Source: an uncultured Clostridia bacterium (lineage in GTDB: Bacteria > Bacillota > Clostridia > Christensenellales > CAG-917). From it: a DNA stretch of 64,000 nt. A model generated the notes under the pieces. It did not search any database. It was not told the DNA's origin and saw only the letters and a list, made by a program, of their open reading frames with translations. The stretch is from contig CANRBM010000001.1 in assembly GCA_947628855.1 (NCBI GenBank), positions 575-64,574 of the forward strand. Direction: 5' to 3'. This document shows positions 32,546 to 56,113 of this stretch, piece by piece; positions within the stretch are counted from its first letter, which is position 1, and every line of letters begins with the position of its first letter. Both the position numbers and the translations under genes were made by a program.

Positions 32546-32846
32546 ACATAATTTTGTATAAAAATTTCGTATGGCGCGATATTGCGCGAGACAGTGATAT
32601 TGCGCCGTAAAAATGCATAAATTTTTTGGATTTATGCATAAATTTGAGGGGGTTTATACATTTATTTTGCATAAAACCTCGCTGTTTAATTGAATTTTAA
32701 TTATATTTAGTGCATAAAAACAGTTGCCTTATCGCAGTTTTTTTGCTAAAATGATAACCTACACGATCCATAATGTGAGATTAGTATAAATATATATTCT
32801 CATTATGCAGATATTAGCCGATGTAATAGTTCGGCTTGGAGGCAGT

Positions 32847-35800
32847 ATGAACAGGACTAAAATACTCGGAAGGATCTCTCTTGTTTTGGTGGCGGTGCTC
32901 GTCTTCACCGCGGTTTTCAATATGGCTTACACGGGCGTCATAAACTTCGGCGGCGGCTCTGCCGATCCCGCGGGGGTCGCGACGGCGAGCAGCTCTATTC
33001 AAAAATCCGACATGAACATGGACTCCATCAGAGAGAAGTATCTCAATTTCGAAACAGTCGAAAAGAATACCGCCGCTTTTGACGGCGAGCGTTGGGTCAT
33101 CGTCGAGCTTGACGCGTCTTCTCTTTATGACGAGTTCAAAAAGAACACGAGATTTACGGATCTGACAGAGTATCTGAAGAGCGTCGAGGCGCAGAAGGCT
33201 CTTGCGAGCTTGAGAGCAAAACAGAGCCGTTTCCTCACAAAACTCGACAAATACGGCATCGACTACACTTTCAAATACAACTACTCCACATTGAGCGCGG
33301 GCGTCGCCATCAAGATCAACGCTTCCGCATACAACACTATTGCGGCGATGAGCGGCGTCAAGGGCGTCTACTATTCCGAAAGCTATGCCGTCCCCGAATA
33401 CACCGCGGTCGAAAACGACGCGAACGTGTACTCGACGGGTATCTATGACACTAAAGACCTCATCAACGTCGATACGAACGGAGACAATGTTAAAGAGACC
33501 TATCAAGGGCAAGGCATGGCGGTCGCCATTCTCGACACAGGTCTCGATCGTACTCATGAGGCATTCGACGTCAAGACTTTCAAAGAGAACCTCAAAGAGG
33601 CGGGCAGCGAGAATGAGTTGCACTTCAACAAGCAACAAATCGCAGACTTGCTTAGTCAAAAAGTTTTTAATGCGGAGCAATTCGGCGCGGGCGTAAACGA
33701 CGTCTACTACAATGAGAAGGTCCCCTTCGCATTTGACTATGCGGACGACGATCCAGAAGTTTTCCCCGGATATTCCAACCACGGCACTCACGTCGCGGGC
33801 ATTGTCGCAGGACAGAGCGATTATATCGTCAACGAGGAGACAAAAGAGACTTTCCGCGGCGTTGCGCCTCTTGCACAGCTTGTCATATGCAAGGTGTTTA
33901 CGGACAACCTTTATAGCGATACGCTTGGCGGCGCGAACGACATAGACATCGTCGCGGCGCTCGACGATTGCGTCAAGCTTGGCGTTGACGTCATCAACAT
34001 GAGCCTCGGCACCTCCGCAGGCTTTGCGGACGAGAAGTCAAAGAGTTATCAAGAAAACGTCTACTACAAGATAAGAGAGGCGGGCATAAGCCTCGTTTGC
34101 GCGGCGAGCAACGATTATAGCTCGGGCTACGGCGGCGGCAACGGCACCAACCTTGCTTCCAACCCCGACAGCGGCACGGTCGGCTCTCCTTCCTCATATT
34201 ACACCGCGCTTTCCGTAGCGTCCATAAACGGCAAGAAGTCCAAATATTTGCAGGGCAACAACGATACGGAGCAGGTCGCTTTCATCACCAACGCGTCGGA
34301 CGGCGACGGCAACAGGATAGAATTCATCGAGGAGCTCTATAAGCAACTCGAGGAAAAATACGGAGACGCAAGCAAGGATCTGAGAGGCGGCGAGGTCTTT
34401 GATAAGGAACTCGGCAAAACAAATCTCAACCTAAAATATGTGCTTGTCGGCGGCGTGGGACGTCCGAACAACTACAGTGCGACGATAAGAAATCAACTGC
34501 GTACAAGAACTTACAACGGCGAACCCGTGGACGGCACGATAGCGCTCATCAAGCGCGGCGACACGTCATTTGAAGAGAAGGTCCAAGAGGCTATGTCCAA
34601 CGGCGCCGACGCCGTCATCATCTACAACAACGTTTCGGGTACCATCAACATGAGCCTGGGCGAGGTCAACGATCCCGTCCCGACCTGCCTCATCACGATG
34701 GACGCGTCCGCTCCATTTGTGGACTTCGCACAAAGCCACGGCAACATCGGCACCGTACAGGTCGCGGACAGCTTCGAGGCAGGTCCGTTTATGTCCGACT
34801 TCTCAAGCTGGGGTCCCGTTTCCAACCTCACCCTCAAGCCCGAGATCACGGCGCACGGCGGCGAGATAACATCCGCAGTCCCCGGCGCATACGACGTGCT
34901 GAGCGGCACCTCTATGGCGTCCCCGAACATGGCGGGCGCAGTCGCTGTGCTCCGTCAATATCTGCAAAAGACGACAGAGCTCACAGGCAACGAGCTCAAC
35001 GCGCGCGTCAATCAAGTGCTTATGAGCACGGCTACGATCGCTCGCAACGAGGAGGGCAATCCCTATTCTCCGCGCAAGCAGGGCGCAGGTCTTGCGGGCA
35101 TTTCGGACGCGGTGTTCAGCGAGGGCTACATCACCGTAAAGGCGAATGAGAAGATATATTCCAAGGACAATGCTGCCACGAAGTACAGCATTGTGGCGGA
35201 CGAAAAAGGCGTAGAGTGGCTGGACAAGACAAAGCTCGAGCTGCTTGACGATCCCGACAGGAAGGGCGAATATGAGTTGAAGTTTACGGTGCACAACACG
35301 TCGAAAGAGACTCAGATCTACGCGCCCACGACTTACGTCATGACGGAGACTCTCGCCTCCGACAAGAGGACGGTCGCAGAGAAGGCGTACATGCTCACCG
35401 ATATGTGCGATATCGTATATAGCGGCGCGGGCTATGCGGACGGCAAGATCACCGTTCAAGCGGGGCAGAGCGTTGAGATCACGGTGAAGATAACGCTCCA
35501 ACAGGCGGCGAAAGATTACTTCGAGCAGACGCTTTCGAGGACGGTCATCGGCACGAACGGCAGACCTACCAGCGTGTCGTACAAGCCCTTTGCAAACGGC
35601 ATGTATGTCGAGGGATTCGTGTCCCTTGACAATGTGACATACAAGGATCAGCCGGATCACAAGGACGGCGTTACGCTGGGCGTCCCGTATCTTGCTTTCT
35701 ACGGAAAGTGGATAGACGCTCCGCTGTTCGACTATGACATCTACGAGGTGTCCGAGATCGAGGCAAACAGCGCAATAGATTTTGAAAATAAGCTCAAGAC

Positions 35801-38800
35801 CACCTCTCTCGCGTCTCAAGTCATAGGAATGTATCACAACGACGATTACATCATCCCCCTCGGCTCTTATCTGTACGAGATAGACGAGGAAGAGGACGAC
35901 ATTTATCCCGCGCGAGACAAAATTGCGCTTTCGCAATACGATCGAGAGGGCAGCTACACCGTGTACGAGCTGTATGCGGCTTATGCGGGACTTTTGAGAA
36001 ACGCATCCCAAGTCAAGACGACCGTGACGAACGCTAAGACGGGCGAGGTCGTCTATGAAGAGATACTGAACAACGTCGGCAAAGCATATTCCGCGGGCGG
36101 CGGCAACAGGGGCGCGTTTGTCAGATACGAGATCAATCCCTCCGAGTGGGGTTGGCAGAACAACGACGAGTTCTATTTCAAGGTCGAGGGTTGGCTGGAT
36201 TACAGCAATGACAACAAGCCTCTCGACTATACCAATGAGATCAATCCCGCGCAATCACAAGCGGTGGACGACGAGATATTGACGGCGTGGACGGGAAAGA
36301 GAAACACCTTTGAATTCCCTCTCACTATAGACTATGAGACGCCGCAGATCACGGATTATAAGATACGTTTCGACTCATACAAGGAGTACGGCGTAACTAA
36401 GTATCGTACCTATCTCGATCTGGACGTTTATGACAATCAATATGTAATGGCGGTGTTGCCGTGCTACCTCAAAGAGGAAAAAGAGGGCAAGCTTGGCACC
36501 TACCTCAACTTGCTCACGGAGTATCCTATCCCCGTTTACGGCGAGAAGGGCGGGACGTCCAAAGTGTCCATAGATATCACGGACTATTATGAGGAGTATG
36601 TGCTCAACGCGGATAACAATGGGGACAAGTCGCTGTACATCCAAGTCGAGGACTACGCGATGAACTCCGAGGTGTACGTCATCTATCTCGACGAGGATTC
36701 GCTCAGCTATCCCGAGGATCCCGAGCAGATCACTTTCGTTTCAGACAGCAAGTTGCAACAGACGGACAGACTCGAAAAGAATGTGGACGGCACGTTCTAT
36801 CACACCTATACGCTCACTCTCAAGCCCTTCGAGCTTTACAAACTCAATGTCCCGAGCGCTATCGAGAAAGAGTATATAACGCAAAATCTGACCTGGCAGG
36901 GCGCAAACGACTGCGTGCTTGTGCAGGGAGACGAGATATTTGCTCTCAGATCCGGTTGGCCCGCGAAATTGGAGCTTTATGCGACCATGACTCGTGAGGT
37001 CGGCAACAGTTCGGAAGAGTATGATCGCGTATACGCCGAAATATCGGTACAAGTCGAATCCGGTCCCAAGCAAAGCATGCCTTCGGCAAGCAGTCTGAAT
37101 TTCAAACCCGTGCATGCGGGCGACAACCACATCGTCAATCTGGACGGACTTGCTACAGTCGAGGTCAATCCCAACCAAAACTCGGACGACGAGCCGTTTG
37201 TGCTTGAACCTTACATCTCGCCCTGGTACTTTGAGGCGGCTTACAAGGAAGAAACAGGCAAGGATTTCGAATTTGAGTGGAGGTCCGCAAACGTCGATAT
37301 CGCAACTGTCGAAAACGGAAAGGTGACCTTCATCAAACACGGAAATGTCAACATAACCTGCTCCGCGGCAGACAAGGATAATTACCGCTATCTGAATAAG
37401 TCGGTCAACTTCGCGGTCGGCGAGGACTACTACGTCAACAATTATTATCTGTATGAGTGGTATGGCGGACAGAAAGTCGAGCTTCCGTCAGACGTCAACG
37501 TGTTCTACCTCAGTGATGAGTGTTTCAGAAACGACACGAAGATCACGGAAGTCGTCCTGCCCGATATGCTCATGGAGATACCCGACTTCGCATTCCAAAA
37601 CTGCACGAATCTGAAGACGATAACTATACCCAGCCAGTGCGCGTATATAGGGCCGCACGCTTTTGACGGCTGCACGAGCCTGGAGACGGTGATATTCCCC
37701 GCATACGTGGATTCCAACAAGGATCCCGTGCCCGGATATTACGGTTCCATCGCGGTAGGGCACTATGCATTCAGAAATTGTACGAGCCTCAAGAATTTCG
37801 TCACAGGCGAGCTCAACAGCGAGGGCAAACTTGATTTGAACAAGATATCTCACAGAATGACCGTCATGTATGACGGCGCATTCAGCGGCTGTACGGGACT
37901 TGAGAGCATTGACCTAAGCAAATTGCGCGTGGTCGGTACGGGCGTGTTTGCGGGCTGCACGGGGCTTCAAAGCGTCACGACGACAGCGTCTACGGCATTC
38001 GGTCCGTACATGTTTGACGGCTGCGTAAAATTGAACAACATCAAGTTTGAGGGCTCCACGTTGCCCGCGTACGCTTTCAACGGCTGCACGGGACTTACAA
38101 ACTTCACGTTTGGAAATCAGACGTTGCTCGGCATAGGCGACTACGCGCTTGCGGGCACGGGCATATCCACTATAAAACTTCCCGCGGGCGAATATACTGT
38201 GGGTAGCGGCGCATTTGCAAATTGCGCAAGCTTGAAGACCGTGACCGTGGATCAAGGCGCAAAACTTACGTTCACGGGCGAGAACCCCTTCAAGGGTTGC
38301 AACGGGCTGACATACGCAGTCGAAGGAACAGGCGAGGCGTACAAAGTCGATACGGACGGCGCGCTGTATTCGTTTGATGGCAAGACTGTCATCTCCGTAC
38401 CTTCGGACAAGGCGAACTACACTTTGCCGGAGGGAGTCACGACCATAGGCGACGGCGCGCTTTCGGGCAGCGCTGTCACGACGCTAGACTTGACGAATAT
38501 CACAAATATTGGCAAGTATGCCTTTGCGGGCAGCAAGCTCACGTCTATCAATTGGCCCGCCGGCATTGAGGAGATACCCGAAGGCGCGTTCAGCGGCTGC
38601 ACGAATCTTGCAACCGTCACAGGTCTTGACAATGTAAAGAAAGTGGGCGCGTACGCATTTGAGGGCTGCACCTCGCTTGCGGAGCTTACTTTTAACACGG
38701 TAACCGAGGTCGGAGATCATGCCTTCGATATGATGGATCATATGTCTATGAAGGCGGCTAAAAACAAGCTTAAGACAGTAAACGCGACAAATCTTCAAAA

Positions 38801-41129
38801 GATAGGCGCATGGGCGTTTGCGGGCACAGCTTTGATGCGTGCGGAGTATCAAAGCGCGACAAAAGTCGGCGCGTGGGCGTTTGCGTACAGCGATGTCTCA
38901 AGCGCTGATCTCGGCGCATTGAAGGCACAAGACGGCGTCCCCGGCTTGGGAGATCACGCATTCTACAAAGCGTACAAGTTGGTCAGAGTCTCGCTCGCGG
39001 ACGGAACGGACGAGATAGGCGACTACGCATTCAGCACATTCGACCCGAGGCTTGACAATATGACGAGGCAGAAAGCAAGTACGACAAGCGATTATGTCAA
39101 GGTCTATGTGCGTCAAAACTATATGGACATCACGACGAGCAACAAGCTTACCACCGTGACTTTGCCGACGAGCGTCACGAAGATAGGCGCATACGCTTTC
39201 ACGGGACAATCGGGGCTCAAGACCATTGCACTCGGCAACGTTACTGAGATAGGCGACAGCGCATTCAGACTTTGCTCTTCGCTTGCAAATCTTGACCTAA
39301 AAGCGGCCGTGAATATAGGCGACTATGCGTTCTACGGCTCCGCGCTCACAGAGGTGGCGCTTGACAAGGCGCAAGTGATAGGCGCGTATGCGTTTGCGGG
39401 ATCGAGCGTAACAATGTTCAGATCTACTCCGGGCGCTTCGACACTTCCCAGCGGTTTCGACTTCAGAACGGACAGATTCATGTTCGGCGGAAAGATAGAA
39501 AGAGTTACGCTGGGCGCTGCGACAAGGATAGGAGACTTCGCATTTGCGGGCAACAGTATCAGAAACGTCGTTATCCCCGCCTCAATGAACAGTACGACAT
39601 ATGAATTTGTCGAGAATATCTACGACGAGAAAGGCAGAGTCGAAAGGTCAAGAACGCGCATCGGCAACACCTTCGGCGCGGGCGTATTCGCATACAACTC
39701 CACTATGCGCAAGATCGAAGTTGCTGAAGGCAATACTGCGTTCACGTCCATAGACGGAGTGCTGTACGCATATCAATATGAGGCAAACGACAAGGGCGAG
39801 CTCGTGAAAAACGGCAAGCTCGAACTTGTGCAATACCCGGGCGGAAAGGAAGGCAATACACGTGGCAAATATACCGTTGCGGACAACACCGCGTCCATTG
39901 CCGCGTCCGCTTTCGAGGGCGCGACTGCGAGCAGCGTGGAAGAGGTCGAACTGCCTTATACAGTCAAGATCATCGGCAGCAGCGCGTTCTATTACACTGA
40001 CATAATGAAATACACATTCAACAGCGTGCAGGCGCCTATCATTGTCGCGGCAAACGACGACGTGGCAAACGAGATGTTCAAGGGATTGTTCGCGTCGATC
40101 TACTACGGGCAGAGCAATTACTTCCCATGGCAGATAGACCCCGCAGATGGAAATATGTACCTCGACCTTGACGGCATTTATCTGACCGCGGTATACAGCA
40201 ACTTCGTGGACTATGTTCTCTATTGCAACTTCGGCAATTCGATGTTCTCTTTCAGGGACGAGGTCAAGGCCGATATGCCGATAACCTTCAATGTCCCGGA
40301 GAACGGCGTAGGATATGACAGTGCGCTATTTAATGCATATGTCACGACGGTGACGAAGTCAGAGAACAAACCCGATGACACAACGTACGAAGCCATCAAT
40401 AAGATAGAGGCGCTGGATGAGGCTTTGAAAGATGTAGATTTCCAAAGCTTGACGGTGGCACAGTTGTCGGAGGACAGCAAGATAGGCAAGTTAGTCAAAG
40501 AGGTGCGCGCGGCGTACAACACCGTCACGAAATCGGATCAGCTGAAAGTACTTGAAAACTTCAACGGCAAAAACTACTACGATATACTTGTCAAGTATGA
40601 AACGGCGTTGCGCGAGGCGAGGAATGCGAGCGGTGATGCCAACTTGAAGATCACGCTCAAAGAGGTATCTGTGTTCTCTCCACCCGTGAAGAACAAATAT
40701 AATAATGGCGACAGTTTCGATCCCGCCGGCATGGTCATCAAAGTAGTCTACAGCGACGGCTCCGAGATAAAGATCTCGGACAACTACGCAGAGAACGGCA
40801 TCACGGTCAAGAACCCGCTCATCGACACAACCAGCAAAGCATACACAATAAGTATCGAGTATAAGGACAATTTGACAAACGAAACAAAAGAGGTACAATT
40901 GAGCATCCAGGTCGAGAATTCGTCGAGTCCTAGCGGTCCGAGCGGTCCGAGCGGTCCCAGCGGTCCGGCCGATCCGAGCGGTCCGTCCGATCCGAGCGGA
41001 AACGAGGGCGCAAACAACAACTCGTCTCTGCCCACTTGGGCAATAGCCGTCATAGCTGTCGGCGCGGCGCTTGTCGTGGCGGCGGTCGCCGTGACTGTCA
41101 TCCTCGTGCTCAAGAAGAAGAAAGTTTGA
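32847..41129 (+). CDS. giant cell-surface subtilisin (S8) protease fused to BspA-type LRR arrays, with an Ig-like domain and C-terminal membrane anchor (~2760 aa)
   Basis: Catalytic triad contexts: AILDTGLD, HGTHVAGIVAG, SGTSMASPNMAG. PA-domain-like GTIALIKRGDTSFEEKV. More than 20 LRR units of the IGxxAFxGCxxL type. C-terminal (SGP)n linker, TM helix and KKKKV. The ATG at 32847 follows GGAGG. Confidence 0.85.
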   Translation: MNRTKILGRISLVLVAVLVFTAVFNMAYTGVINFGGGSADPAGVATASSSIQKSDMNMDSIREKYLNFETVEKNTAAFDGERWVIVELDASSLYDEFKKNTRFTDLTEYLKSVEAQKALASLRAKQSRFLTKLDKYGIDYTFKYNYSTLSAGVAIKINASAYNTIAAMSGVKGVYYSESYAVPEYTAVENDANVYSTGIYDTKDLINVDTNGDNVKETYQGQGMAVAILDTGLDRTHEAFDVKTFKENLKEAGSENELHFNKQQIADLLSQKVFNAEQFGAGVNDVYYNEKVPFAFDYADDDPEVFPGYSNHGTHVAGIVAGQSDYIVNEETKETFRGVAPLAQLVICKVFTDNLYSDTLGGANDIDIVAALDDCVKLGVDVINMSLGTSAGFADEKSKSYQENVYYKIREAGISLVCAASNDYSSGYGGGNGTNLASNPDSGTVGSPSSYYTALSVASINGKKSKYLQGNNDTEQVAFITNASDGDGNRIEFIEELYKQLEEKYGDASKDLRGGEVFDKELGKTNLNLKYVLVGGVGRPNNYSATIRNQLRTRTYNGEPVDGTIALIKRGDTSFEEKVQEAMSNGADAVIIYNNVSGTINMSLGEVNDPVPTCLITMDASAPFVDFAQSHGNIGTVQVADSFEAGPFMSDFSSWGPVSNLTLKPEITAHGGEITSAVPGAYDVLSGTSMASPNMAGAVAVLRQYLQKTTELTGNELNARVNQVLMSTATIARNEEGNPYSPRKQGAGLAGISDAVFSEGYITVKANEKIYSKDNAATKYSIVADEKGVEWLDKTKLELLDDPDRKGEYELKFTVHNTSKETQIYAPTTYVMTETLASDKRTVAEKAYMLTDMCDIVYSGAGYADGKITVQAGQSVEITVKITLQQAAKDYFEQTLSRTVIGTNGRPTSVSYKPFANGMYVEGFVSLDNVTYKDQPDHKDGVTLGVPYLAFYGKWIDAPLFDYDIYEVSEIEANSAIDFENKLKTTSLASQVIGMYHNDDYIIPLGSYLYEIDEEEDDIYPARDKIALSQYDREGSYTVYELYAAYAGLLRNASQVKTTVTNAKTGEVVYEEILNNVGKAYSAGGGNRGAFVRYEINPSEWGWQNNDEFYFKVEGWLDYSNDNKPLDYTNEINPAQSQAVDDEILTAWTGKRNTFEFPLTIDYETPQITDYKIRFDSYKEYGVTKYRTYLDLDVYDNQYVMAVLPCYLKEEKEGKLGTYLNLLTEYPIPVYGEKGGTSKVSIDITDYYEEYVLNADNNGDKSLYIQVEDYAMNSEVYVIYLDEDSLSYPEDPEQITFVSDSKLQQTDRLEKNVDGTFYHTYTLTLKPFELYKLNVPSAIEKEYITQNLTWQGANDCVLVQGDEIFALRSGWPAKLELYATMTREVGNSSEEYDRVYAEISVQVESGPKQSMPSASSLNFKPVHAGDNHIVNLDGLATVEVNPNQNSDDEPFVLEPYISPWYFEAAYKEETGKDFEFEWRSANVDIATVENGKVTFIKHGNVNITCSAADKDNYRYLNKSVNFAVGEDYYVNNYYLYEWYGGQKVELPSDVNVFYLSDECFRNDTKITEVVLPDMLMEIPDFAFQNCTNLKTITIPSQCAYIGPHAFDGCTSLETVIFPAYVDSNKDPVPGYYGSIAVGHYAFRNCTSLKNFVTGELNSEGKLDLNKISHRMTVMYDGAFSGCTGLESIDLSKLRVVGTGVFAGCTGLQSVTTTASTAFGPYMFDGCVKLNNIKFEGSTLPAYAFNGCTGLTNFTFGNQTLLGIGDYALAGTGISTIKLPAGEYTVGSGAFANCASLKTVTVDQGAKLTFTGENPFKGCNGLTYAVEGTGEAYKVDTDGALYSFDGKTVISVPSDKANYTLPEGVTTIGDGALSGSAVTTLDLTNITNIGKYAFAGSKLTSINWPAGIEEIPEGAFSGCTNLATVTGLDNVKKVGAYAFEGCTSLAELTFNTVTEVGDHAFDMMDHMSMKAAKNKLKTVNATNLQKIGAWAFAGTALMRAEYQSATKVGAWAFAYSDVSSADLGALKAQDGVPGLGDHAFYKAYKLVRVSLADGTDEIGDYAFSTFDPRLDNMTRQKASTTSDYVKVYVRQNYMDITTSNKLTTVTLPTSVTKIGAYAFTGQSGLKTIALGNVTEIGDSAFRLCSSLANLDLKAAVNIGDYAFYGSALTEVALDKAQVIGAYAFAGSSVTMFRSTPGASTLPSGFDFRTDRFMFGGKIERVTLGAATRIGDFAFAGNSIRNVVIPASMNSTTYEFVENIYDEKGRVERSRTRIGNTFGAGVFAYNSTMRKIEVAEGNTAFTSIDGVLYAYQYEANDKGELVKNGKLELVQYPGGKEGNTRGKYTVADNTASIAASAFEGATASSVEEVELPYTVKIIGSSAFYYTDIMKYTFNSVQAPIIVAANDDVANEMFKGLFASIYYGQSNYFPWQIDPADGNMYLDLDGIYLTAVYSNFVDYVLYCNFGNSMFSFRDEVKADMPITFNVPENGVGYDSALFNAYVTTVTKSENKPDDTTYEAINKIEALDEALKDVDFQSLTVAQLSEDSKIGKLVKEVRAAYNTVTKSDQLKVLENFNGKNYYDILVKYETALREARNASGDANLKITLKEVSVFSPPVKNKYNNGDSFDPAGMVIKVVYSDGSEIKISDNYAENGITVKNPLIDTTSKAYTISIEYKDNLTNETKEVQLSIQVENSSSPSGPSGPSGPSGPADPSGPSDPSGNEGANNNSSLPTWAIAVIAVGAALVVAAVAVTVILVLKKKKV
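40932..41000 (+). repeat. 9-bp in-frame tandem repeat (agcggtccg)n encoding (SGP)n
   Basis: About 7.5 consecutive 9-mers with few substitutions. Confidence 0.9.
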
Positions 41130-48503: not shown

Positions 48504-50054
48504 ATGGCAGAAGAAAAAAACAAGCATTATATTACCGCCAAGGAGTCGCGCGAGATAGCAAAGAACAATGCGCGCACCATAAAGGAGCTGCAAAAAAAGC
48601 GCGCCTCGTATAAGCACGAGGACTACGTCACCGAGATGCGCGATCCCAAAAACATCGTGGAGTTTGACGATCTGCACACCTACTTCTTTACGGACAACGG
48701 CACCGTCAAAGCGGTCAACGGCGTGTCTTTCGACATCCCGCAGGGCTCTACGGTGGGCGTAGTGGGCGAGTCGGGCTGCGGCAAATCCGTGACAAGCCTG
48801 TCCCTTATGCAGCTCGTGCAAGGTCCTATGGGACAGATCGTGGAGGGCAGCATACGTTTCCGCTCCACGGTGCGTACTCCCGTTGGCAAGGAGCCCGTTT
48901 TTGAGGAGATAATAGACAGCGACGGCAACGTCGTCAAGGACGCCGACGGCAATCCCATAATGAGACAGGCACGCCACGGCAAGGGCAAACTCAAATTCAC
49001 GACGGAGAAGATCCCCGCCGAGGAAGAAGTGCTCGACGAAGAGGGAAAGCCCGTGCTTGACGAGGACGGAAATCCCAAAATGCGCCCCATACTCGACAAA
49101 AAGGGCAACCCCACATATAAAAAGATCAAAAAACCCGTGCTCATACCCGCGCTCGATAACGACGGGCATGAGATTTTGAAGGAGGACGGCACTCCCGTCC
49201 TCGAACAGGCGTATCAAAAGGCGGGCAAGCTGAGAGAGCGCACCGTCTTTGACGAGCACGAGGAAGTTTTCGACGTCGCAAAGATGCCTGCAAAGGATAT
49301 GTACAACATCCGCGGCAGGGAGATCGCGATGATCTTCCAGGAGCCTATGACAAGTCTGAATCCCGTCTTTACGATAGGCTATCAGCTTGATGAGGTCACG
49401 CTGCTGCACGTCAACGGCGCGGACAAAGAGGACGCCAAAAAGCGCAGCCTCGAAATGCTCAATCTTGTCGGCATAGCGATGCCCGAGCATGTGTACAAAT
49501 CCTATCCGCACCAACTTTCGGGCGGTATGCGTCAGCGCGTTATGATCGCTATGGCGCTGTGCTGCAACCCAAAACTCATCATCGCGGACGAGCCTACCAC
49601 CGCGCTCGACGTCACCATACAGGCGCAGATACTCGACCTTTTGAGGGACGTCAAGGACAAGATAAGCGGCAGCATTATGCTCATCACGCACGACCTAGGC
49701 GTTATCGCGGAAATGGTGGACTACGTCGTCGTCATGTACGCGGGCAGAGTCGTGGAAAAGGGCACTGTGCGCGAGATATTCAAAACTCCGCTCCACCCCT
49801 ACACGATAGGACTGCAACAGAGCAAGCCCGTCGTCGGCAAGGAAGTGGACAGGCTGTACAGCATACCCGGCAACGTCCCCAACCCAATAAACATGCCGTC
49901 TACTTGTTATTTCAAGGACAGATGCCATATGAAGTGCGCAGCTTGCAACGAGCCCTATCCCGATATGGTGCAGGTGTCGCCTACACACTTTGTGGCTTGC
50001 CACCGCTATAAAGATATTCTCAAGGAGCATGAAAATGAAGAAGCCGATGAATGA
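48504..50054 (+). CDS. Opp-type ABC ATPase (OppD-like) with a ~140-aa insertion
   Basis: Walker A GESGCGKS, signature LSGGMRQR, Walker B LIIADEPT, plus an oligopeptide C-terminal domain. Confidence 0.9.
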   Translation: MAEEKNKHYITAKESREIAKNNARTIKELQKKRASYKHEDYVTEMRDPKNIVEFDDLHTYFFTDNGTVKAVNGVSFDIPQGSTVGVVGESGCGKSVTSLSLMQLVQGPMGQIVEGSIRFRSTVRTPVGKEPVFEEIIDSDGNVVKDADGNPIMRQARHGKGKLKFTTEKIPAEEEVLDEEGKPVLDEDGNPKMRPILDKKGNPTYKKIKKPVLIPALDNDGHEILKEDGTPVLEQAYQKAGKLRERTVFDEHEEVFDVAKMPAKDMYNIRGREIAMIFQEPMTSLNPVFTIGYQLDEVTLLHVNGADKEDAKKRSLEMLNLVGIAMPEHVYKSYPHQLSGGMRQRVMIAMALCCNPKLIIADEPTTALDVTIQAQILDLLRDVKDKISGSIMLITHDLGVIAEMVDYVVVMYAGRVVEKGTVREIFKTPLHPYTIGLQQSKPVVGKEVDRLYSIPGNVPNPINMPSTCYFKDRCHMKCAACNEPYPDMVQVSPTHFVACHRYKDILKEHENEEADE

Positions 50055-51393
50055 GATCAATACCGATGAAAACGCCTTTGGCGTAGTCGATCAGCCCTCT
50101 CAACCTGCTCCGGAGGAGCAAACGCAAGAGGTGAGCGAGGCACAAGTTGCCGCAATTTTGGGCAAGCCCGTTCCCGCAAAGAAAAGGGCGAGGAAAACTA
50201 CCGCTAATACCAAGCCTAAACTTGAAGAGGTAGTACCCGAGGCAAATGCAGAGGAAACGCCTGCGGATGCACCCGCTAATGGACCTTTGACGAATTCAGA
50301 GGCAAAGGGCGGGGATACAGCGAAGAAGGCGGAGATCAAGCTTGAGGAAGTCAAGGACAATGGCGAAGAGCACATGCAGGCGGTACAGCTTGACAGTGCG
50401 CACGAGGACGCTCCCGAGGATGATACGCCACTGCTCAAGGTCGTGAACCTCAAGGAGTGGTTCCCGATAAAGACTTCCATCGACAAGCGCAAAAACGTCT
50501 ATCTTAAAGCGGTGGACGGCGTTTCGTTTGAACTTAGACAGGGCAAGACGATAGGCATAGTCGGCGAGTCGGGCTGCGGCAAGACGACTTTGGGACGTAC
50601 GATCTTGCGACTCTATCAGCCTACGGACGGCGAGATCATCTTCGAGGGCAAGCATATAGAGAAGTTGAAGGGCGAGGCGCTCAGGCGTATGCGTCCGCAT
50701 TTCCAGATGATATTCCAGGATCCGTATGCGTCGCTCTCTCCCAGGCTCACCGTCGGCGAGATAGTCGGAGAGGCGGTCAAGACGCACAAGATAGTGCCTA
50801 AGGAGCAGTACAAGGACTATGTCGTGGATATTATGCTCAAGTGCGGTCTGCAACCCCACTATTTCGAGCGCTATCCTCATGAGTTTTCGGGCGGACAGAG
50901 ACAGCGTATCTGCATCGCCAAGGCGCTCGCGCTCAAACCAAAACTCGTCATCTGCGACGAGCCCGTCAGCGCGCTCGACGTGTCCATTCAAGCGCAGGTC
51001 ATAAACTTGTTCAAGGACTTGCAGGAGTCGGACAACCTCGCGTATATCTTCATATCGCACGACCTCTCCGTCGTCGAGCATATCTCGGACGAGGTCGGCG
51101 TCATGTACCTCGGCAATATGGTGGAGTTCGGCTCCAAAAAAGACCTCTTCTCCAACCCGATGCACCCCTATACGCAAGCGCTCTTCTCGGCGGTCCCCAT
51201 CCCCGACCCCGACACAAAGATAAAGCGTATAATCTTGCAGGGCGACATCCCGTCCCCCGCGCACCCGCCAAAGGGCTGCAAATTCCACACTCGCTGCAGC
51301 AAGTGTATGGACATCTGCTCCGAGGTGGAGCCGAAATTCAAGGATTACGGCGACGGCCACTTTGTAGCTTGCCACCTCTATCCGCAGGATTGA
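50035..51393 (+). CDS. Opp-type ABC ATPase (OppF-like) with a ~150-aa low-complexity N-terminal extension
   Basis: Walker A GESGCGKT, FSGGQRQR, LVICDEPVSALD. AAGGAG lies 7 nt upstream of the ATG at 50035; the track ORF starts at 49990. Confidence 0.85.
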   Translation: MKKPMNEINTDENAFGVVDQPSQPAPEEQTQEVSEAQVAAILGKPVPAKKRARKTTANTKPKLEEVVPEANAEETPADAPANGPLTNSEAKGGDTAKKAEIKLEEVKDNGEEHMQAVQLDSAHEDAPEDDTPLLKVVNLKEWFPIKTSIDKRKNVYLKAVDGVSFELRQGKTIGIVGESGCGKTTLGRTILRLYQPTDGEIIFEGKHIEKLKGEALRRMRPHFQMIFQDPYASLSPRLTVGEIVGEAVKTHKIVPKEQYKDYVVDIMLKCGLQPHYFERYPHEFSGGQRQRICIAKALALKPKLVICDEPVSALDVSIQAQVINLFKDLQESDNLAYIFISHDLSVVEHISDEVGVMYLGNMVEFGSKKDLFSNPMHPYTQALFSAVPIPDPDTKIKRIILQGDIPSPAHPPKGCKFHTRCSKCMDICSEVEPKFKDYGDGHFVACHLYPQD

Positions 51394-51407: not shown

Positions 51408-51438
51408 AAAAAAATGTCCGAATTTTCGGACATTTTTT
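51408..51438. terminator. bidirectional intrinsic terminator after the opp operon
   Basis: aaaaaatgtccgaa-ttt-tcggacatttttt. Confidence 0.75.
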
Positions 51439-51474
51439 GTTGCTCACCATTGGAATCGATAGTTGATTTGCGAA

Positions 51475-51509
51475 TAAAAAAGTCGAGAGTTTTGCACTCA
51501 ACTTTTTTG
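51475..51509 (-). terminator. intrinsic terminator of the HAD/TIR-like unit
   Basis: On the minus strand: agttgag-tgcaaaa-ctcgact followed by T6, 11 nt after the stop at 51520. Confidence 0.6.
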
Positions 51510-51519
51510 TATGTAAACT

Positions 51520-53043
51520 TTATAACTTTATGGAACGTGAAAGTTTGATTTTTTCACGCAATGCGTCAATACTTTCTTTCATAGCATAAAGCCTTCCAAG
51601 CTCAGATGAATCGTAATAATTGCGCAATTCGTCGCTGAGATCGTTTGTCGCGGCGATCAGCTGTTGTTTGGAATATTGACTATAGTCGTGGAGCCGCGAG
51701 CAAAGATCCAACTCATGTTTTTTAACAAGAAAATATTCAAACGAAAGTGCATTTGTAAAGACGCCACGGAATGCGTTGACTCTACACCATTCGCGTCTTG
51801 TTACGATTGATTGCATAGAATATTTGTGTATCAATGCTAGGTAATCTGTTTCGTCGGTGGCGAGATACAGCGTTTCATAGGCCCTTGTCAAATCATATTC
51901 TGCATATCCGCGCCACAGATTTTCCGACGTTCCGCCATTGCTAGCGGCAGTTTCAAGCATTTTGTCATAAAAAGCAATCGCTTTGTTTACTGTTTTGACC
52001 GCCTCATCGTCGAATTTGTTGCGAAAATTCACCATTTTCATATAGGCAAGTCCCGCATATTCGTATGCCATAATGCGTATAAGCCAATTGACTTTCAACA
52101 AGCCGCTCTCGATCTTGCCAATAAAAGCCTCCAGTTTTTCCGCGATGATTAAAAATTCATACTCATATTCTTGTGCCGCTTTCGGGTCAGCCGACGGATC
52201 ATTCATGCAGCGAATGACTTCTTTACGCAGTTTCAATTCGGAATATGTGATGAGCGTATTAACAAAATTGCACACTTGCGTCAAGAAATCGTTGCTTGCA
52301 TAGGCAAAGTCGTCCTCGGAAAATTTGACATGTTGTTTCAAAGCGTTTAAAAACAAGAAAAATTGTCCGTTGTTGTTGAAATCCGGGAAGAATTTAAGGC
52401 GTTCGAGGATATACATAAGACGTTCGGAGGCAAACGTGAAGGAGCGCGCGCCTTCTTCCCAGCTTGTGAGTATGCTGGCAAGTTGAATATCCGCTTTTTT
52501 TTCATAGGTTTCTTCGGGAATGTCGGAAAGCAGATTTTCATAGTCGAAAATATACTTGTCGTTTGAAAGTATCTCTTTATAAGTTTTGAGTTTGAGCAAG
52601 TTGACGATCTCTTGTACAACATCATCAATCACTTGTTCGATATTTTCCTTGTCAAATTGATTGGCGTTTATCCATCCTTTCAAGTCGGATGGGAAGTCGT
52701 CGGGCAAAGGATATTTTTCGGTCAAAAAGATGCATTTGTCGGTATTGTCCACCGCCATCAGCGCCATGCCGATCTCGACAAGGACGTTTTGTCTTACGCG
52801 CGTTTGTCCCACATCGTCAAACGTAAGTATGATGATGCTTATGTCTGAAGATGAAATGGCATCCTTAATTTGAGAAAAGATCGAAGCGCTGCTGAGCACA
52901 CGTTTTGCCACTATTGCGGAAACGATAGGATAGAAATTTTCGGAATGCAAAGCATTGATTCTTTCATTGAGTTTTGTCGCGACATTGCGTCCGGAGCCGC
53001 CATAAATGATTGAAATTTTTTTGTAACGTCCGATCATAGTCAC
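51520..53043 (-). CDS. TIR-like (PF10137/Cap12-PycTIR-type) domain protein fused to an uncharacterised helical-repeat C-terminal domain (507 aa)
   Basis: Residues ~8-130: KKISIIYGGSG, IIILTFDD, RVRQNVLVEIG, FPSDLKGW. The rest is helix-rich with TPR-like stretches. A GTG at 53043 overlaps the upstream stop; the first ATG is at 53037. Confidence 0.75.
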   Translation of the reverse strand: MTMIGRYKKISIIYGGSGRNVATKLNERINALHSENFYPIVSAIVAKRVLSSASIFSQIKDAISSSDISIIILTFDDVGQTRVRQNVLVEIGMALMAVDNTDKCIFLTEKYPLPDDFPSDLKGWINANQFDKENIEQVIDDVVQEIVNLLKLKTYKEILSNDKYIFDYENLLSDIPEETYEKKADIQLASILTSWEEGARSFTFASERLMYILERLKFFPDFNNNGQFFLFLNALKQHVKFSEDDFAYASNDFLTQVCNFVNTLITYSELKLRKEVIRCMNDPSADPKAAQEYEYEFLIIAEKLEAFIGKIESGLLKVNWLIRIMAYEYAGLAYMKMVNFRNKFDDEAVKTVNKAIAFYDKMLETAASNGGTSENLWRGYAEYDLTRAYETLYLATDETDYLALIHKYSMQSIVTRREWCRVNAFRGVFTNALSFEYFLVKKHELDLCSRLHDYSQYSKQQLIAATNDLSDELRNYYDSSELGRLYAMKESIDALREKIKLSRSIKL

Positions 53044-53720
53044 ACCATCCGTAAAATTTGATCCAATCCCTCGCGGATCGTATCAAAGTGATAAGTTGTG
53101 TATTTAGGGGCAAGTTTTCCCACTCCTATCGAATATTTGCAAAATTTTATCATCGGCAGATCGTTGACCCCATCGCCTACTGCGACGCAATCTGCCGGGA
53201 GTATTCCATAATGTTTGCAGACCGCCTCCAAACTGACAAATTTGTCTATGCTTTTTGGCACAATGTCAAAGGAGTCGACATGTTCGTATACGGTGACGGC
53301 AGAGGGCGGAGAAGAGAAATATTGCCGCAACAAGAGCCGCGTCTCCTCGTCCTTAAAAAAGAATGTGAGCATAACCTCGTTTGGTTGTAACCAAAACCGA
53401 CCCGCACATTTTGACGTGATATCCGCCAGTATGTCCGCGCGCTGTTTGGCGTAAGCAGGTGGGATGGGCAGAAAGATTGTATCGGGAGGAAGCGTCGACC
53501 CTATGGCAATACTGCATCCGTTTTCGCCAATAAAAATGGGATTTTTCAGGCCTACCTGTCGAAACATTCCAATTTGATAATATATGCTTTTGCCGGATGA
53601 AATGACGATTTTGACTCCTTTTTCCTCTATTTCTTTAAGCAAAACGACATCCTCATCCTTGATAGGACGCCCCACCTCTGCAAGTGTGCCATCGATATCA
53701 AACGCTGCCATTTTTATCAT
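53040..53720 (-). CDS. Cof-type HAD-IIB family hydrolase/phosphatase
   Basis: Motif I FDIDGTL, motif II ISSGK, motif IV GDGVNDLPM. AGAGGA lies 5 nt upstream of the ATG at 53720; the track ORF starts at a TTG at 53738. Confidence 0.8.
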   Translation of the reverse strand: MIKMAAFDIDGTLAEVGRPIKDEDVVLLKEIEEKGVKIVISSGKSIYYQIGMFRQVGLKNPIFIGENGCSIAIGSTLPPDTIFLPIPPAYAKQRADILADITSKCAGRFWLQPNEVMLTFFFKDEETRLLLRQYFSSPPSAVTVYEHVDSFDIVPKSIDKFVSLEAVCKHYGILPADCVAVGDGVNDLPMIKFCKYSIGVGKLAPKYTTYHFDTIREGLDQILRMV

Positions 53721-53865
53721 AACGATCCTCTTCCACAAAAGTAACTTGTACAGTCAAACCGGATTTATATTTTTATGATATCACAATATCTTAAAATAAT
53801 CAAAGATATTCGGCGAATTTGCAAGTTTTAGTATGAAATGTAGTGAAATCGATTTTTATCTCACA

Positions 53866-54228
53866 AAACCGATACGCAATTTTATGGCTGTCCCAAATCA
53901 TTATCAAAAAAATCACTCCGTAATTGTTTTGGGGACCCCGATCAAATACCCCATAAAATCGCTACGCAATTTTGCGGGGACCCCGATTATTTACCCCATA
54001 AAATCGCTACGCAATTTTATGGGGACCCCGATGTCGCTCGGACAAAGGTAACGTTAATCACTCAGACAAAGCGTTCGTCAATTTCAAGCTCTCACGCAGG
54101 AGTTAGTACCATACACACAATCCAAAAAGCGCTAATGTGGGCGATGAAAGAGCCACATTCGCGCTTTTTAGCTTGGAGTGCAGGGGACGAAGTCCCTTGC
54201 CGAGGTGTGGAGCAGCGCTCCACATATA
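53866..54228. repeat. intergenic modular hairpin repeat cluster (copy 5)
   Basis: Two ccccataaaatcgctacgcaatttt(a/g)(t/c)gggg-accccg hairpins with 45-bp period. A linker follows, then element A in minus orientation, ending about 20 nt from the spoVFB stop. Confidence 0.85.
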
Positions 54229-54245: not shown

Positions 54246-54815
54246 TCACCTGAGCAGCAGAGGTTGGAGTTGTTTGCCGTCGAGGGCGCATGCTAGGGTG
54301 GGCAGGGTGAGGGAGAAGTCGCAGACGAGGGAGTTTGGCTTTTTGGAGGGCGAATCCTGTCCGAAGGGCACGAAGTAGATGTTTTTTGTGTTGAGAAGTC
54401 TGCCTATATTGCGGGCGTTCGCGGCGAGGGAGTCGTTTGAGGCTATCGCGAGCACGACGGGGCGGTTGTTGCGAAGGTGCGCTTTGATCGCCATTGTTAC
54501 GGGCGTATCGGTGATGCCGTGCGCTATTTTGGCGAGGGTGTTGCCAGTACAGGGCGCGACGAGCATGATGTCGAGAGGGCGCGAGGTGCCCAAAGGTTCG
54601 GCTTCGACTATTGTCTTTATGGGCGTTTTGCCCGTCTTTTCTATTATTTTTGCTTCAAAATCCGCCTGTTTGAAAAAGCGGGTGTCGAGCGTTGCGACGT
54701 TAAAGCTGAATATGGGTGTGACGTCATAGTCGCTCTCGCGTATGCCGTCGAGGATATTAAGTAGGTTGGCGTGCGTGCAGAAGGAGCCCGTCACGCAAAG
54801 TCCGAGTTTTATCAT
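54246..54815 (-). CDS. spoVFB: dipicolinate synthase subunit B
   Basis: Flavoprotein-family sequence (IKLGLCVTGSFCT...VAPCTGNTLAKIA). 4-nt overlap with spoVFA. Confidence 0.9.
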   Translation of the reverse strand: MIKLGLCVTGSFCTHANLLNILDGIRESDYDVTPIFSFNVATLDTRFFKQADFEAKIIEKTGKTPIKTIVEAEPLGTSRPLDIMLVAPCTGNTLAKIAHGITDTPVTMAIKAHLRNNRPVVLAIASNDSLAANARNIGRLLNTKNIYFVPFGQDSPSKKPNSLVCDFSLTLPTLACALDGKQLQPLLLR

Positions 54816-55528
54816 TTTGTCACCTCCGATATGTAGTCACGCATGGCGCGCGCGGCGCCGAGAGGACACACTTTTGCGGGCAGGGCGGGATAGATGTCAG
54901 CGTCCAGCCCAAGATATTTGGCGTATTCTAGGTTGACGGCGGGCGAAGAGGCAAGGTCGATGTAGACTACGGTCTCGCGCATAGTGAGCAGTTCGGAGTC
55001 CTTGACGATGGGATAGGGCACGGTGTTTATTATCACGTCATACGGCGCAAAATCAAAACCTTCGAGCGGCACGACGCGCTCCGCGAATGCGTAGGCGGGA
55101 CGGGAAGATCCGTTGGTGGCGACATCGAGGGAAATTCCCAGCTTGTTCATGAGCCGCGCTACAGCCGCGCCCATGCGCCCGAAACCCATGACGAGCACGC
55201 GCGCATCGGAGATGGATATGAGCGAGTGCTCGAGCATGAGCATTAGCGCGCCCTCCGCCGTGAGTCGCGAATTGACCGCCAGAAACTTTTCGTCGCGCAT
55301 TATCTCATATACGTCTATGCCGCGTCCCGAGGCGGAATTTCTCACGACGTCCGAGCATTTTCCGCAAATTACGCACCCGCCGTCCGCAACTTCGGACAGC
55401 TTTTCTTCGTCGAGCGCTACGTTTGGCGCAAACACATGTGTGTCACGTCCGTAGCTTTCGCCAGAGAGCAGCTTCTGCAAAAAATACATCCTTTCATCCG
55501 TCCGATGGACCGTCAAATTGTTTTTCAT
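54812..55528 (-). CDS. spoVFA: dipicolinate synthase subunit A
   Basis: Rossmann motif VLVMGFGRMGAAVA and the NSRLTAEGALMLMLEH block align by eye to B. subtilis DpaA. The first 50 codons of the track ORF (start 55678) are translated repeat, so I prefer the ATG at 55528. Confidence 0.85.
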   Translation of the reverse strand: MKNNLTVHRTDERMYFLQKLLSGESYGRDTHVFAPNVALDEEKLSEVADGGCVICGKCSDVVRNSASGRGIDVYEIMRDEKFLAVNSRLTAEGALMLMLEHSLISISDARVLVMGFGRMGAAVARLMNKLGISLDVATNGSSRPAYAFAERVVPLEGFDFAPYDVIINTVPYPIVKDSELLTMRETVVYIDLASSPAVNLEYAKYLGLDADIYPALPAKVCPLGAARAMRDYISEVTK

Positions 55529-55585
55529 ACTGTATCGTATGCGCTTTGCTTTTGACTTGGTGCGTGGCTTTTTTTGGTATTGTTC

Positions 55586-56113
55586 GTGGGCTACGCGCCC
55601 ACACTGCGGCAAGGGGTTTCGTCGCCCCATGCAGGGCTGCGAGCCCTGCACCTCGGCAAGGGACTTCGTCCCCTGCACCCCAAACTAAAAACGCGAGCTA
55701 GGCAAATTCTTGCCGTCGCTCGCGTTTTTGATTGTTTGCAAGTGACAAAACTCCTGTGTGAGAGCTTGATATTGACGGACGCTTTGTCCGAGTTATTAAC
55801 GTTACCTTTTGTCTGAGCATCATCGGGGTCCCCATAAAATTGCGTAGCGATTTTATGGGGTAAATAATCGGGGTTCCCATAAAATTGCGTAGTGATTTTA
55901 TGGGGTATAACAGGGGGATTCCTCGACTACGCTCGGAATGACAATGTAATATATGAGGATTCCTCGACTTCGCTGCGCTTCGCTCGGAATGACAAGTTAT
56001 AATTCCTGTCATGTTGAGCGATACGGGGTCCCCATAGAAATGAGCGTAGCGAATTTTATGGGGTATAGGATACGGGGTCCCCACAAAAGATGAAATATTT
56101 TTGTTTTAAGTCT
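55586..56113. repeat. intergenic modular hairpin repeat cluster (copy 6), inverted relative to copy 5
   Basis: Element A-variant(+), linker, two ccccataaaattgcgtag.gattttatgggg hairpins, three ggattcctcgac...ctcggaatgaca modules and further hairpins. Confidence 0.85.

Follow-up and report, generated by a model that had tools for sequence, protein, structure and literature searches.

Why should a small phosphatase be encoded directly beside a TIR-like protein, and what could the two do together? The question is raised by an operon of two genes on the minus strand of a 64,000-nucleotide stretch of contig CANRBM010000001.1, from an uncultured Clostridia bacterium (we call the whole stretch the window, and count positions from its first letter). 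The upstream gene encodes a phosphatase of the HAD (haloacid dehalogenase) type and the downstream gene a protein in which a TIR-like (Toll/interleukin-1 receptor-like) domain is followed by a long helical domain. To our knowledge, TIR effectors that cleave NAD+ are central to CBASS (cyclic-oligonucleotide-based anti-phage signalling systems), Pycsar, Thoeris, SPARTA and Avs, and the partners described for them are a signal synthase, a nucleic-acid sensor, or none at all. The original prediction, an earlier note on this DNA, knew of no described system with a HAD and TIR pairing, and our full-text literature searches bear it out, having found no paper in which a TIR domain is teamed with a HAD phosphatase; Yirmiya et al., who surveyed TIR proteins systematically, do not mention a HAD in their text or in the supplementary material searched.

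Our analysis indicates that the pair is probably a credible variant of bacterial anti-phage defence. As to how it might work, the reading that we favour, though tentatively, is that of a horizontally acquired two-gene operon acting as an abortive-infection-type anti-phage module, with the HAD as a co-effector.

Results

The TIR-like domain. The larger gene (51520..53037 on the minus strand, stop included, from the open reading frame and its translation) encodes a protein of 505 residues, in which Pfam recognises a single family, PF10137 (CAP12-PCTIR_TIR), at residues 12-126 (E=1.8e-11, 44.5 bits against a gathering threshold of 24.7, model positions 4-114 of 119), with no match to STING, SAVED or cNMP-binding domains. 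A precomputed PF10137 annotation is likewise carried by 53 of 53 full-length homologues. In the AlphaFold2 (AF2) model, which was built on the family alignment (mean predicted local distance difference test, pLDDT, 87.2; predicted template modelling score, pTM, 0.86), the N-terminal domain spans residues 6-148 (52594..53022, minus strand) as five strands alternating with helices, and is followed by a linker and then by an all-helical part at residues 175-499. Foldseek against the PDB places TIR-STING (9lmq and 7un8) at the top, then the TRAM TIR domain, the nucleotide N-glycosidase DNPH1 and the SPARTA TIR domain; the probability is 1.0 for TIR-STING, TRAM and SPARTA, while the E-values are modest (2e-3 and weaker) because the query had two domains. 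A profile built from 35 family members gives the same neighbours in the PDB, with Cap12/TIR-STING 7un8 at E=1.5e-5, 9lmq at 3.8e-5 and PycTIR 8jsj at 0.038, and the best PADLOC matches, all of which fall on this domain, are PDC-S35 (5.2e-8), the CBASS model "Effector TIR" (4e-5) and PycTIR (0.016).

The motifs quoted in the original prediction are present in the translation, and the residue that it took to be catalytic, the Glu of RVRQNVLVEIG, is there as well, although as Glu88 rather than Glu90 (codon 52774..52776, minus strand). All 35 aligned family members have this Glu, together with R80, R82, Q83, N84, V85 and G90, and F115-P116-S117 is invariant too, in an alignment that reaches down to 28% identity. 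In the profile comparison the Glu of the family motif RvRQNVLvEiG aligns with that of PRDNVVFEFG in Cap12 (7un8) and of VRDNVVFEFG in 9lmq. The assignment to a PF10137-type domain, which the prediction would have given up had the profile or structural support failed or the Glu been lost, therefore holds on all three counts. By sequence and model, the catalytic domain is of the Cap12/PycTIR TIR-like type and intact, and we predict that it cleaves NAD.

The helical domain. A second domain fused to the first was also foreseen, and it is found at residues 175-499 (51541..52515, minus strand), where the AF2 model has 14 helices; we presume that it serves in sensing or assembly. To the helical part, Foldseek matches generic helical repeats only (LGN tetratricopeptide repeats, or TPR, 14-3-3 and Rap). 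A profile of the C-terminal 356 residues, run against 1.84 billion representative proteins, gave only 140 matches, and those that cover the domain in full are nearly all proteins of 475-540 residues with the domain at about 150-500. Pfam finds PF10137 in 58 of 73 C-terminal-domain matches, TPR models (TPR_12, TPR_8, TPR_MalT) in a few and TIR_2 in one. The helical domain is thus TPR-derived, dedicated to PF10137 and almost exclusively fused to it. We had considered a freely swappable sensor module, which this near-exclusive fusion rules out. Invariant within the domain are W193, E205, E212, R213, Y265, Y327, R385, R414, W417, Y435 and F436, and such aromatic and charged residues would be compatible with the binding of a ligand or of a protein.

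The HAD phosphatase. The smaller gene (53040..53720, minus strand; 226 residues and stop) encodes a protein that matches PF08282 (E=7.4e-28) and passes the NCBIfam model for the HAD-IIB subfamily, TIGR01484 (70.3 bits, cut-off 41.8). It had been called a Cof-type HAD-IIB enzyme. Only half of that name can be kept: since TIGR01484 is passed and the Cof-type model TIGR00099 is not reached (83.2 bits, cut-off 137), "HAD-IIB" is safe and "Cof-type" is loose. The protein is some 40 residues shorter than typical Cof-type enzymes, does not reach the threshold of the NCBIfam phosphoglycolate-phosphatase model and matches the HMP-PP phosphatase model weakly. All four HAD motifs are in place, namely FDIDGTL (motif I, D8 and D10), SSGK (motif II, S42), K160 (motif III) and GDGVNDLPM (motif IV, D183 and D187), and D8, D10, T12, S42, K160, D183 and D187 are invariant in 32 paired and solo homologues, together with the probable cap or substrate residues R54, Q55, GENG 65-68, LPP 77-79, Q112, N114, F151 and D152. 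The AF2 model (pLDDT 95.6) has a C2B cap, and its Foldseek neighbours, at template modelling scores of about 0.8, are HAD-IIB sugar-phosphate phosphatases (PH1421, Bacteroides HADs, YidA, YbiV, SupH and trehalose-6-phosphate phosphatases). Judged by its conserved residues and its model, the HAD is a catalytically intact small-molecule phosphatase of the HAD-IIB type.

How closely are the two genes joined? As open reading frames (ORFs) on the minus strand they run from 53040 to 53738 (HAD) and from 51520 to 53043 (TIR-like), and the junction, read directly from the sequence, is CGG ATG GTG TGA CT ATG ATC GGA. Within it (GTGACTATG, 53037..53043, minus strand), the HAD stop TGA (53042-53040) overlaps a GTG at 53043-53041 (GTGA), and the first ATG, at 53037, follows 2 nt past the stop, just as had been read before. 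Because the TIR-like ATG lies only 2 nt past the HAD stop, the arrangement suggests translational coupling. That this ATG is the true start follows from the homologues, 34 of 34 aligned beginning MI/MV/ML.(K)Y at its position, and from the public gene call, which also has 505 residues; hence the gene stands as predicted but its product is 505 and not 507 residues long. For the HAD, whose homologues start MIK(L/M)A(A/V)FD, the start is most likely ATG 53720 (MIKMAAFDIDGTL, giving 226 residues) rather than TTG 53738.

Conservation of the pair. For a survey of the pair, loci were drawn from a species-representative genome set, from JGI metagenomes and from assemblies encoding individual homologues, and were searched with six paired-type HAD queries. 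Wherever the TIR-like protein is at least 43% identical to that of the window, a HAD lies next to it on the same strand, in 17 of 17 loci or 11 of 11 non-redundant pairs, with the distance between the genes ranging from about -23 to +30 nt. Seven of these pairs have the HAD upstream (TIR-like identity 49-100%) and the other 4 have it downstream (43-46%). At 42% identity and below, an adjacent HAD was found in 0 of 52 full or partial loci, two of which, at 42%, are truncated or frameshifted and so uninformative. Neighbour joining of the TIR-like proteins gives one clade made up of two sister groups, upstream-type and downstream-type, pairwise distances of HAD and TIR-like proteins co-vary (Mantel r=0.82, p about 2e-4), and in nine more pairs of TIR-like and HAD clusters the longest contigs are of equal size, which fits shared contigs. 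Fusions of the two were not seen, either among the HAD matches, all of 212-279 residues, or among the TIR-like matches, and a search with the TIR-like domain by itself gave no more than five fragments. On this comparative evidence, the HAD is an obligate and strictly co-inherited partner within its TIR-like clade. The co-occurrence whose absence the original prediction would have taken as a refutation is thereby found, within one clade; the defence-island surroundings for which it proposed to look are mostly not, as will be seen below.

Where on the large protein might such a partner act? Positions that are specific to the paired clade and differ in HAD-less relatives fall in the helical domain in 14 of 14 cases, and six of them (K215, D219, F226, F227, E241 and Y251) lie within residues 215-251, a stretch that we offer as a lead, a candidate HAD contact region.

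In neighbour-joining bootstraps of the HAD family, the upstream-type HADs are monophyletic in 100 of 100 replicates, while upstream and downstream types form an exclusive clade in 0 of 100 and the downstream type groups with solo HADs in 65 of 100; identities between downstream-type and solo HADs reach 56%. Either the solo HADs are what remained after a TIR-like partner was lost, or a resident family supplied the HAD partner on two occasions, and the lack of an exclusive paired clade in the bootstrap would be compatible with a second recruitment. Since no exclusive clade of paired HADs is backed by the bootstrap, we claim neither a single nor a double recruitment. Both fit a functional need for this type of HAD, and on both its chemistry is probably ordinary.

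Origin and mobility. In the window, the operon lies between the opp operon (convergent oppD/oppF) and the dipicolinate synthase genes dpaAB, in a low-GC islet (51450..54150) that contains the HAD/TIR-like operon and flanking intergenic DNA only. The GC content of the islet is 0.418, against 0.527 in the rest of the window; other 2.2-kb windows have a mean of 0.528 (standard deviation 0.021) and a minimum of 0.476. At third codon positions, GC is 0.47-0.48 in the two operon genes against 0.68-0.69 in the adjacent dpaA and dpaB. Whereas opp and dpaAB flank the pair in the lineage of the window, elsewhere the flanks are rpmF and an aldo-keto reductase gene, or EamA and proBA, or a two-component system with a large serine recombinase and a Rep protein, or genes for a TIR_2 protein, an HNH protein and a 1647-residue protein, or a UvrD-like helicase gene. 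In one further lineage (L034, 1-5120), the pair directly follows an RtcB RNA-ligase gene and is adjoined by phage terminase and portal genes, so that it may be cargo at the edge of a prophage. Pairs that are 84% identical to that of the window lie outside the opp/dpa context. From these varying flanks and from the 84%-identical pairs we conclude that the two genes travel together as a unit, and, with the low GC of the islet added, the operon is by these sequence signs horizontally acquired and of foreign origin. An opp-dpaAB junction without the islet was looked for in related genomes and none was found; the flanks are shared by contigs of the same species only, all of which have the pair.

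Neighbourhoods without a HAD. The claim that no CD-NTase, pyrimidine cyclase or Thoeris partner accompanies the pair is upheld for the 64-kb window, in which a PADLOC scan of the 46 other ORFs (at least 110 residues, E<=1e-5) found no CD-NTase, cyclase or ThsB/TIR_2 and gave matches only to a subtilase and an IetS-like model, one ORF each. The HAD-paired loci, too, are generally without a ThsB-like neighbour, the exception being one (L045) with a TIR_2 gene 2 kb upstream. Matters are different in the sister clades, where several of the HAD-less loci whose neighbours were examined stand in a defence-type context. One HAD-less relative lies between two or three large ThsB-like TIR_2 proteins (L006), another in an island with a kinase-Card1 protein, RyR, four TIR_2/ThsB_TIR genes and a type IV secretion system coupling protein (L037), and a third between a DUF4062-TPR-MORN protein and a 1103-residue TIR protein, with a WYL regulator beside it (L043/L044). 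These neighbourhoods may be multi-TIR systems on conjugative elements. In a metagenome-assembled genome of Eubacteriales (L008, 4022-9473), the gene of a HAD-less relative of 30% identity shares 4 nt with the end of a gene for a Lamassu LmuB-like SMC ATPase, whose 5' side is abutted by an endonuclease-effector-like gene, and a three-gene Lamassu-type operon that includes the TIR-like/TPR protein is possible. Other HAD-less loci have no defence annotation nearby (L012, with lysyl-tRNA synthetase and a ClpB-like ATPase; L015, with an AI-2E transporter), and two (L009 and L029) have large neighbouring proteins without PADLOC matches. The defence contexts of the sister clades are our main contextual argument for placing the family in immunity.

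We note separately that the relatives with TIR-rich surroundings (L006, 3324-12143; L037, 3286-9220; L043, 2068-10937) are from the human gut and 36-39% identical to the window protein, one cluster comprising 177 member sequences.

Expression signals and other features of the window. Upstream of the HAD gene there is a Shine-Dalgarno-like GGAAGAGGA (53725-53733, minus strand, 5-13 nt 5' of the start), and the operon upstream region (53725..53907) holds two sigma-70-like sites, at 53803-53775 (extended TG) and 53907-53879, both on the minus strand; these are weak evidence, the consensus scan having given 9 sites where 6.5 are expected in shuffles. Downstream of the TIR-like gene, a terminator-like hairpin with a 13-bp stem and a T run (51409..51438) is shared with the convergent oppF. 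A search against Rfam found no riboswitch or RNA regulator 5' of the operon, and its sole match is a sub-threshold one beyond dpaA, to the small RNA Clostridiales-2 (55616-55690, minus strand; 27.9 bits against a gathering threshold of 58.6, E=0.0015), which overlaps the inverted-repeat arm 5' of dpaA.

That arm is part of a larger arrangement, in which dpaA and dpaB (54246-55678, minus strand) are bracketed by long inverted repeats at 53927-54207 and 55649-55922, with stretches of 101, 61 and 43 nt that are 93%, 92% and 95% complementary, respectively. The repeats are composed of 45-nt units, each with the palindrome CCCCATAAAATCGCTACGCAATTTTATGGGG, and extra copies lie at 53855-53887 and 56020-56088; one repeat arm is directly 5' of the HAD/TIR-like operon. 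They could be intergenic repeats of the repetitive extragenic palindrome or miniature inverted-repeat transposable element kind, or else the ends of an invertible or mobile segment. On the other side of the operon, both ATPases of the opp operon (48504-51393, plus strand) are unusually long, OppD (516 residues) through an insert of about 170 residues rich in D-G-N/T-P-hydrophobic-K repeats (...DSDGNVVKDADGNPIMRQ...DEEGKPVLDEDGNPKMRPILDKKGNPTYKK...) and OppF (about 450 residues) through a low-complexity N-terminal extension of about 150 residues. Still further 5' of the opp operon is a single ORF of 2774 residues (32805-41129, plus strand), one of the 46 that were scanned with PADLOC.

Discussion

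How could a TIR-like effector and a phosphatase work together against a phage? Since PF10137 domains of CBASS and Pycsar cleave NAD+ upon ligand-driven oligomerisation (PMC12871103), we infer for the window protein both sensing by the helical domain and cleavage by the TIR-like domain, just as we infer the defence function and the substrate and role of the HAD. In the co-effector scheme that we prefer, the TPR-derived C-terminal domain would sense a trigger and drive assembly, whereupon the N-terminal TIR-like domain, with Glu88 as its catalytic residue, would cleave NAD+ or a closely related nucleotide. The HAD, co-translated with the effector, would then act on a product (a ribose-phosphate or nucleotide) or on an NAD precursor, taking off a phosphate and so making the depletion irreversible; candidate substrates are ribose-5-phosphate, nicotinamide mononucleotide or nicotinic acid mononucleotide (NMN/NaMN), 2'-phospho-ADP-ribose and ADP-ribose-pyrophosphate (ADPR-pyrophosphate). 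Such a division of labour would parallel the two-enzyme sink of PUA-Calcineurin-CE-HAD (PUA-Cal-HAD), in which the HAD binds to the oligomerised effector and dNTPs are drained by the two enzymes acting in sequence (PMC12871103).

A number of observations weigh against this scheme. Cleavage of NAD+ by TIR domains yields ADPR and nicotinamide, and neither is a phosphomonoester, so that the co-effector role needs an extra step or another substrate. Relatives at 25-39% identity have the same TIR-like/TPR architecture without any HAD, which implies that the core mechanism can do without it. Stand-alone HAD homologues of 35-45% identity are common in Clostridia, with the same invariant residues and with ordinary neighbours (a mechanosensitive channel, an EAL protein, an acetyltransferase, lanthipeptide genes), and this argues for an ordinary metabolite as the substrate. 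PADLOC has no match to the HAD, and the HAD-paired loci have mostly housekeeping flanks with some mobile-element genes and are not classical defence islands. No relative was found by tblastn in the phage and plasmid collections, and the viral contigs gave no full-length relative, only a weak domain match. Finally, the authors of PUA-Cal-HAD report that their HAD is mostly absent where the effector is TIR or DrHyd (PMC12871103).

Could the HAD restrain the effector rather than assist it? In the same defence module it might act as a brake that continuously hydrolyses a phosphorylated activator of the TPR-derived domain, or a toxic product made at low level, and thus sets a threshold and averts self-killing. 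Ring nucleases are an analogous brake in cyclic-oligoadenylate signalling. We regard a brake as possible but doubtful. Tight coupling and strict co-inheritance resemble toxin/antitoxin-like pairs, a constitutive activity that does no harm would fit the benign solo HADs that share these active-site and cap residues, the aromatic and charged positions that never vary in the helical domain would suit a pocket for a small molecule, and mononucleotide danger signals have precedent in Metis and in PUA-Cal-HAD (PMC12871103 for the latter). Yet those helical-domain residues are just as invariant in sister clades that have no HAD, the ligand is only hypothetical, the HAD's structural neighbours are sugar-phosphate phosphatases and not nucleotidases, and the gene order flips, unlike that of many antitoxin-first pairs. 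Another proposal, which strikes us as unlikely, makes the HAD a control or counter-counter-defence element that either (a) makes or destroys a phosphorylated ligand of the TPR-derived domain or (b) hydrolyses intermediates of NAD+ resynthesis. Version (a) amounts to a phosphatase-gated TIR effector in which the HAD stands in for the ThsB-type TIRs of the sister clades; in version (b), ADPR-pyrophosphate, NMN/NaMN and compounds of the phosphoribosyl-pyrophosphate type would be removed, which would block both phage NAD+ reconstitution and host salvage, and the HAD family does include pyrophosphate-cleaving members. It is very improbable, in our judgement, that the HAD replaces ThsB altogether, in a Thoeris-like system where an infection-triggered dephosphorylation makes the small molecule that activates the TIR-like/TPR effector. 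HAD-less sister clades do often have a ThsB-like TIR_2 protein immediately adjacent (L006, L037, L043), the Thoeris effector ThsI has the same domain logic and is activated by cyclic ADP-ribose (cADPR), and a HAD tree without an exclusive paired clade and with downstream-type and solo HADs together leaves room for partner replacement. Against this stand the size of the neighbouring TIR_2 proteins, which are large and multidomain and could be independent systems, the smallness of a 226-residue HAD with ordinary solo homologues, which makes it an unlikely infection sensor, and the want of any precedent for the arrangement; moreover, the signal-making role loses ground because no homology between the family and a ThsI-like protein could be detected (hhalign probability 0.8%), and the ThsI domain PF20308 misses the window protein. 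Among the roles open to the HAD, we accordingly place co-effector before brake, and brake before signal-making enzyme.

The pair might also have nothing to do with phages. In metabolism or under stress, an N-glycosidase for nucleotides or NAD could work with a sugar-phosphate phosphatase in nucleotide or NAD turnover or salvage, releasing base and ribose-5-phosphate and then ribose. The HAD-IIB relatives are indeed sugar-phosphate phosphatases, DNPH1, a nucleotide N-glycosidase, is among the matches to the TIR-like fold, solo HADs stand in housekeeping contexts, and several paired loci have purely housekeeping flanks. We nevertheless hold a metabolic role to be decidedly unlikely, because a dedicated TPR-derived domain of 350 residues is hard to explain in a salvage enzyme, because the pair is patchy, low in GC and variable in location, sometimes at prophage or recombinase borders, because the sister clades are embedded among TIR and Lamassu-like genes, because PF10137 is otherwise known from CBASS and Pycsar effectors, and because a search against Rfam found no riboswitch or metabolic regulator upstream. 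Mere adjacency, in which a single-gene TIR-like defence gene was inserted next to a resident housekeeping HAD without any functional link, can hardly be credited. Clostridia do often have solo HADs of this family, as this would require, but the two genes are neighbours, at most 30 nt apart, in every one of the 11 non-redundant loci, which represent at least 6 unrelated contexts and both gene orders; both genes are also as low in GC as the islet, and HAD and TIR-like distances co-vary.

If the module is what we take it to be, a TIR-like effector with a phosphatase would be the second case of "effector plus HAD" beside PUA-Cal-HAD, with a chemically unrelated effector, and HAD phosphatases would look like accessories enlisted repeatedly by immunity directed at nucleotides. 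What the pair could teach depends on what the HAD does: it could show how NAD+ depletion withstands phage NAD+ reconstitution, or how a self-toxic effector is kept below threshold, or it could reveal a new signal based on dephosphorylation. The clade is narrow and the function of the HAD may prove mundane, although the comparative signal is clean. Clustered at 50% identity, the family comes to only about 140 clusters, it occurs mainly in gut Clostridia and it involves only two genes, so that these ideas are cheap to test.

Comparison with known systems

How new, then, is this arrangement? The closest relatives of the large protein are the CBASS effector Cap12 (TIR-STING, TIR-SAVED) and the Pycsar effector PycTIR, with which it shares the PF10137 domain, the aligned Glu of NVxxExG, a predicted fold closest to that of TIR-STING, and the logic of a TIR head and a sensor domain in one chain. 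Unlike them, it has a TPR-derived helical array in place of a STING, SAVED or cNMP-binding domain, and unlike CBASS and Pycsar, where HAD phosphatases are absent, it has one as its partner and no CD-NTase or pyrimidine cyclase in the 64-kb window. Because the defining partners were looked for and are absent, the system of the window is not CBASS, Pycsar or Thoeris. The best PADLOC match, to the single-gene candidates PDC-S35 (about 245-280 residues, with a C-terminal TIR-like domain), lies on the TIR-like domain and pairs residues 44-146 of the 507-residue ORF product with model positions 119-228 of 245, which is a domain-level similarity only; those models are half as long, and have neither the helical domain nor a HAD partner. 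Weak matches in Pseudomonas are ORFs of 288 residues at the two loci that were checked (L021 and L023), and we liken them to the PDC-S35 models by length alone.

Among Thoeris systems, ThsI of type VIII, described as "CMP hydrolase + TPR" and activated by cADPR (bioRxiv 10.64898/2025.12.03.692087), resembles the window protein in having an N-glycosidase-fold head followed by a TPR-type sensor. Its TPR-S domain, PF20308, has no detectable homology to our family; Pfam gives no match to PF20308 in the window protein at E<=1, and there is no ThsB in the window. We compared the family profile with a ThsI-like protein from the E. coli plasmid NZ_CP147111, which carries PF20308 and adjoins a type VIII-like ThsB, and from the resulting hhalign value given above we reject membership in ThsI and retain only an analogy. 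That plasmid locus deserves a remark of its own. On this IncP plasmid (L124, 2776-5972), a TPR-S protein and a small TIR gene adjoin a second TIR gene and a DUF4231 protein, with a recombinase beside them, an array whose domains suggest Thoeris of type VIII and type VII side by side; the same TIR recurs on over 100 plasmids, in Enterobacterales and in other taxa.

The HAD, for its part, has two counterparts in immunity. In type III CRISPR-Cas, the HAD of the CARF-HAD protein Chp is itself the immune effector and depletes ATP, dATP and IMP (PMC12715507), but it is fused to transmembrane helices and a CARF sensor, while the window HAD is a bare 226-residue HAD-IIB enzyme with a C2B cap. Much nearer in its layout is PUA-Calcineurin-CE-HAD, which, like the pair of the window, encodes in a single operon a sensor-effector fusion and, separately, a small HAD phosphatase. 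Its effector is a metallophosphoesterase and its sensor PUA-like, as against a TIR-like N-glycosidase and a TPR-derived domain here, the two HADs being likened by description; in the large protein of the window, Pfam finds PF10137 only. Because effector and sensor both differ, the system of the window is not PUA-Cal-HAD. Against the literature searched, a conserved phosphatase partner for a single-chain TIR effector is unprecedented, though the system is not categorically new.

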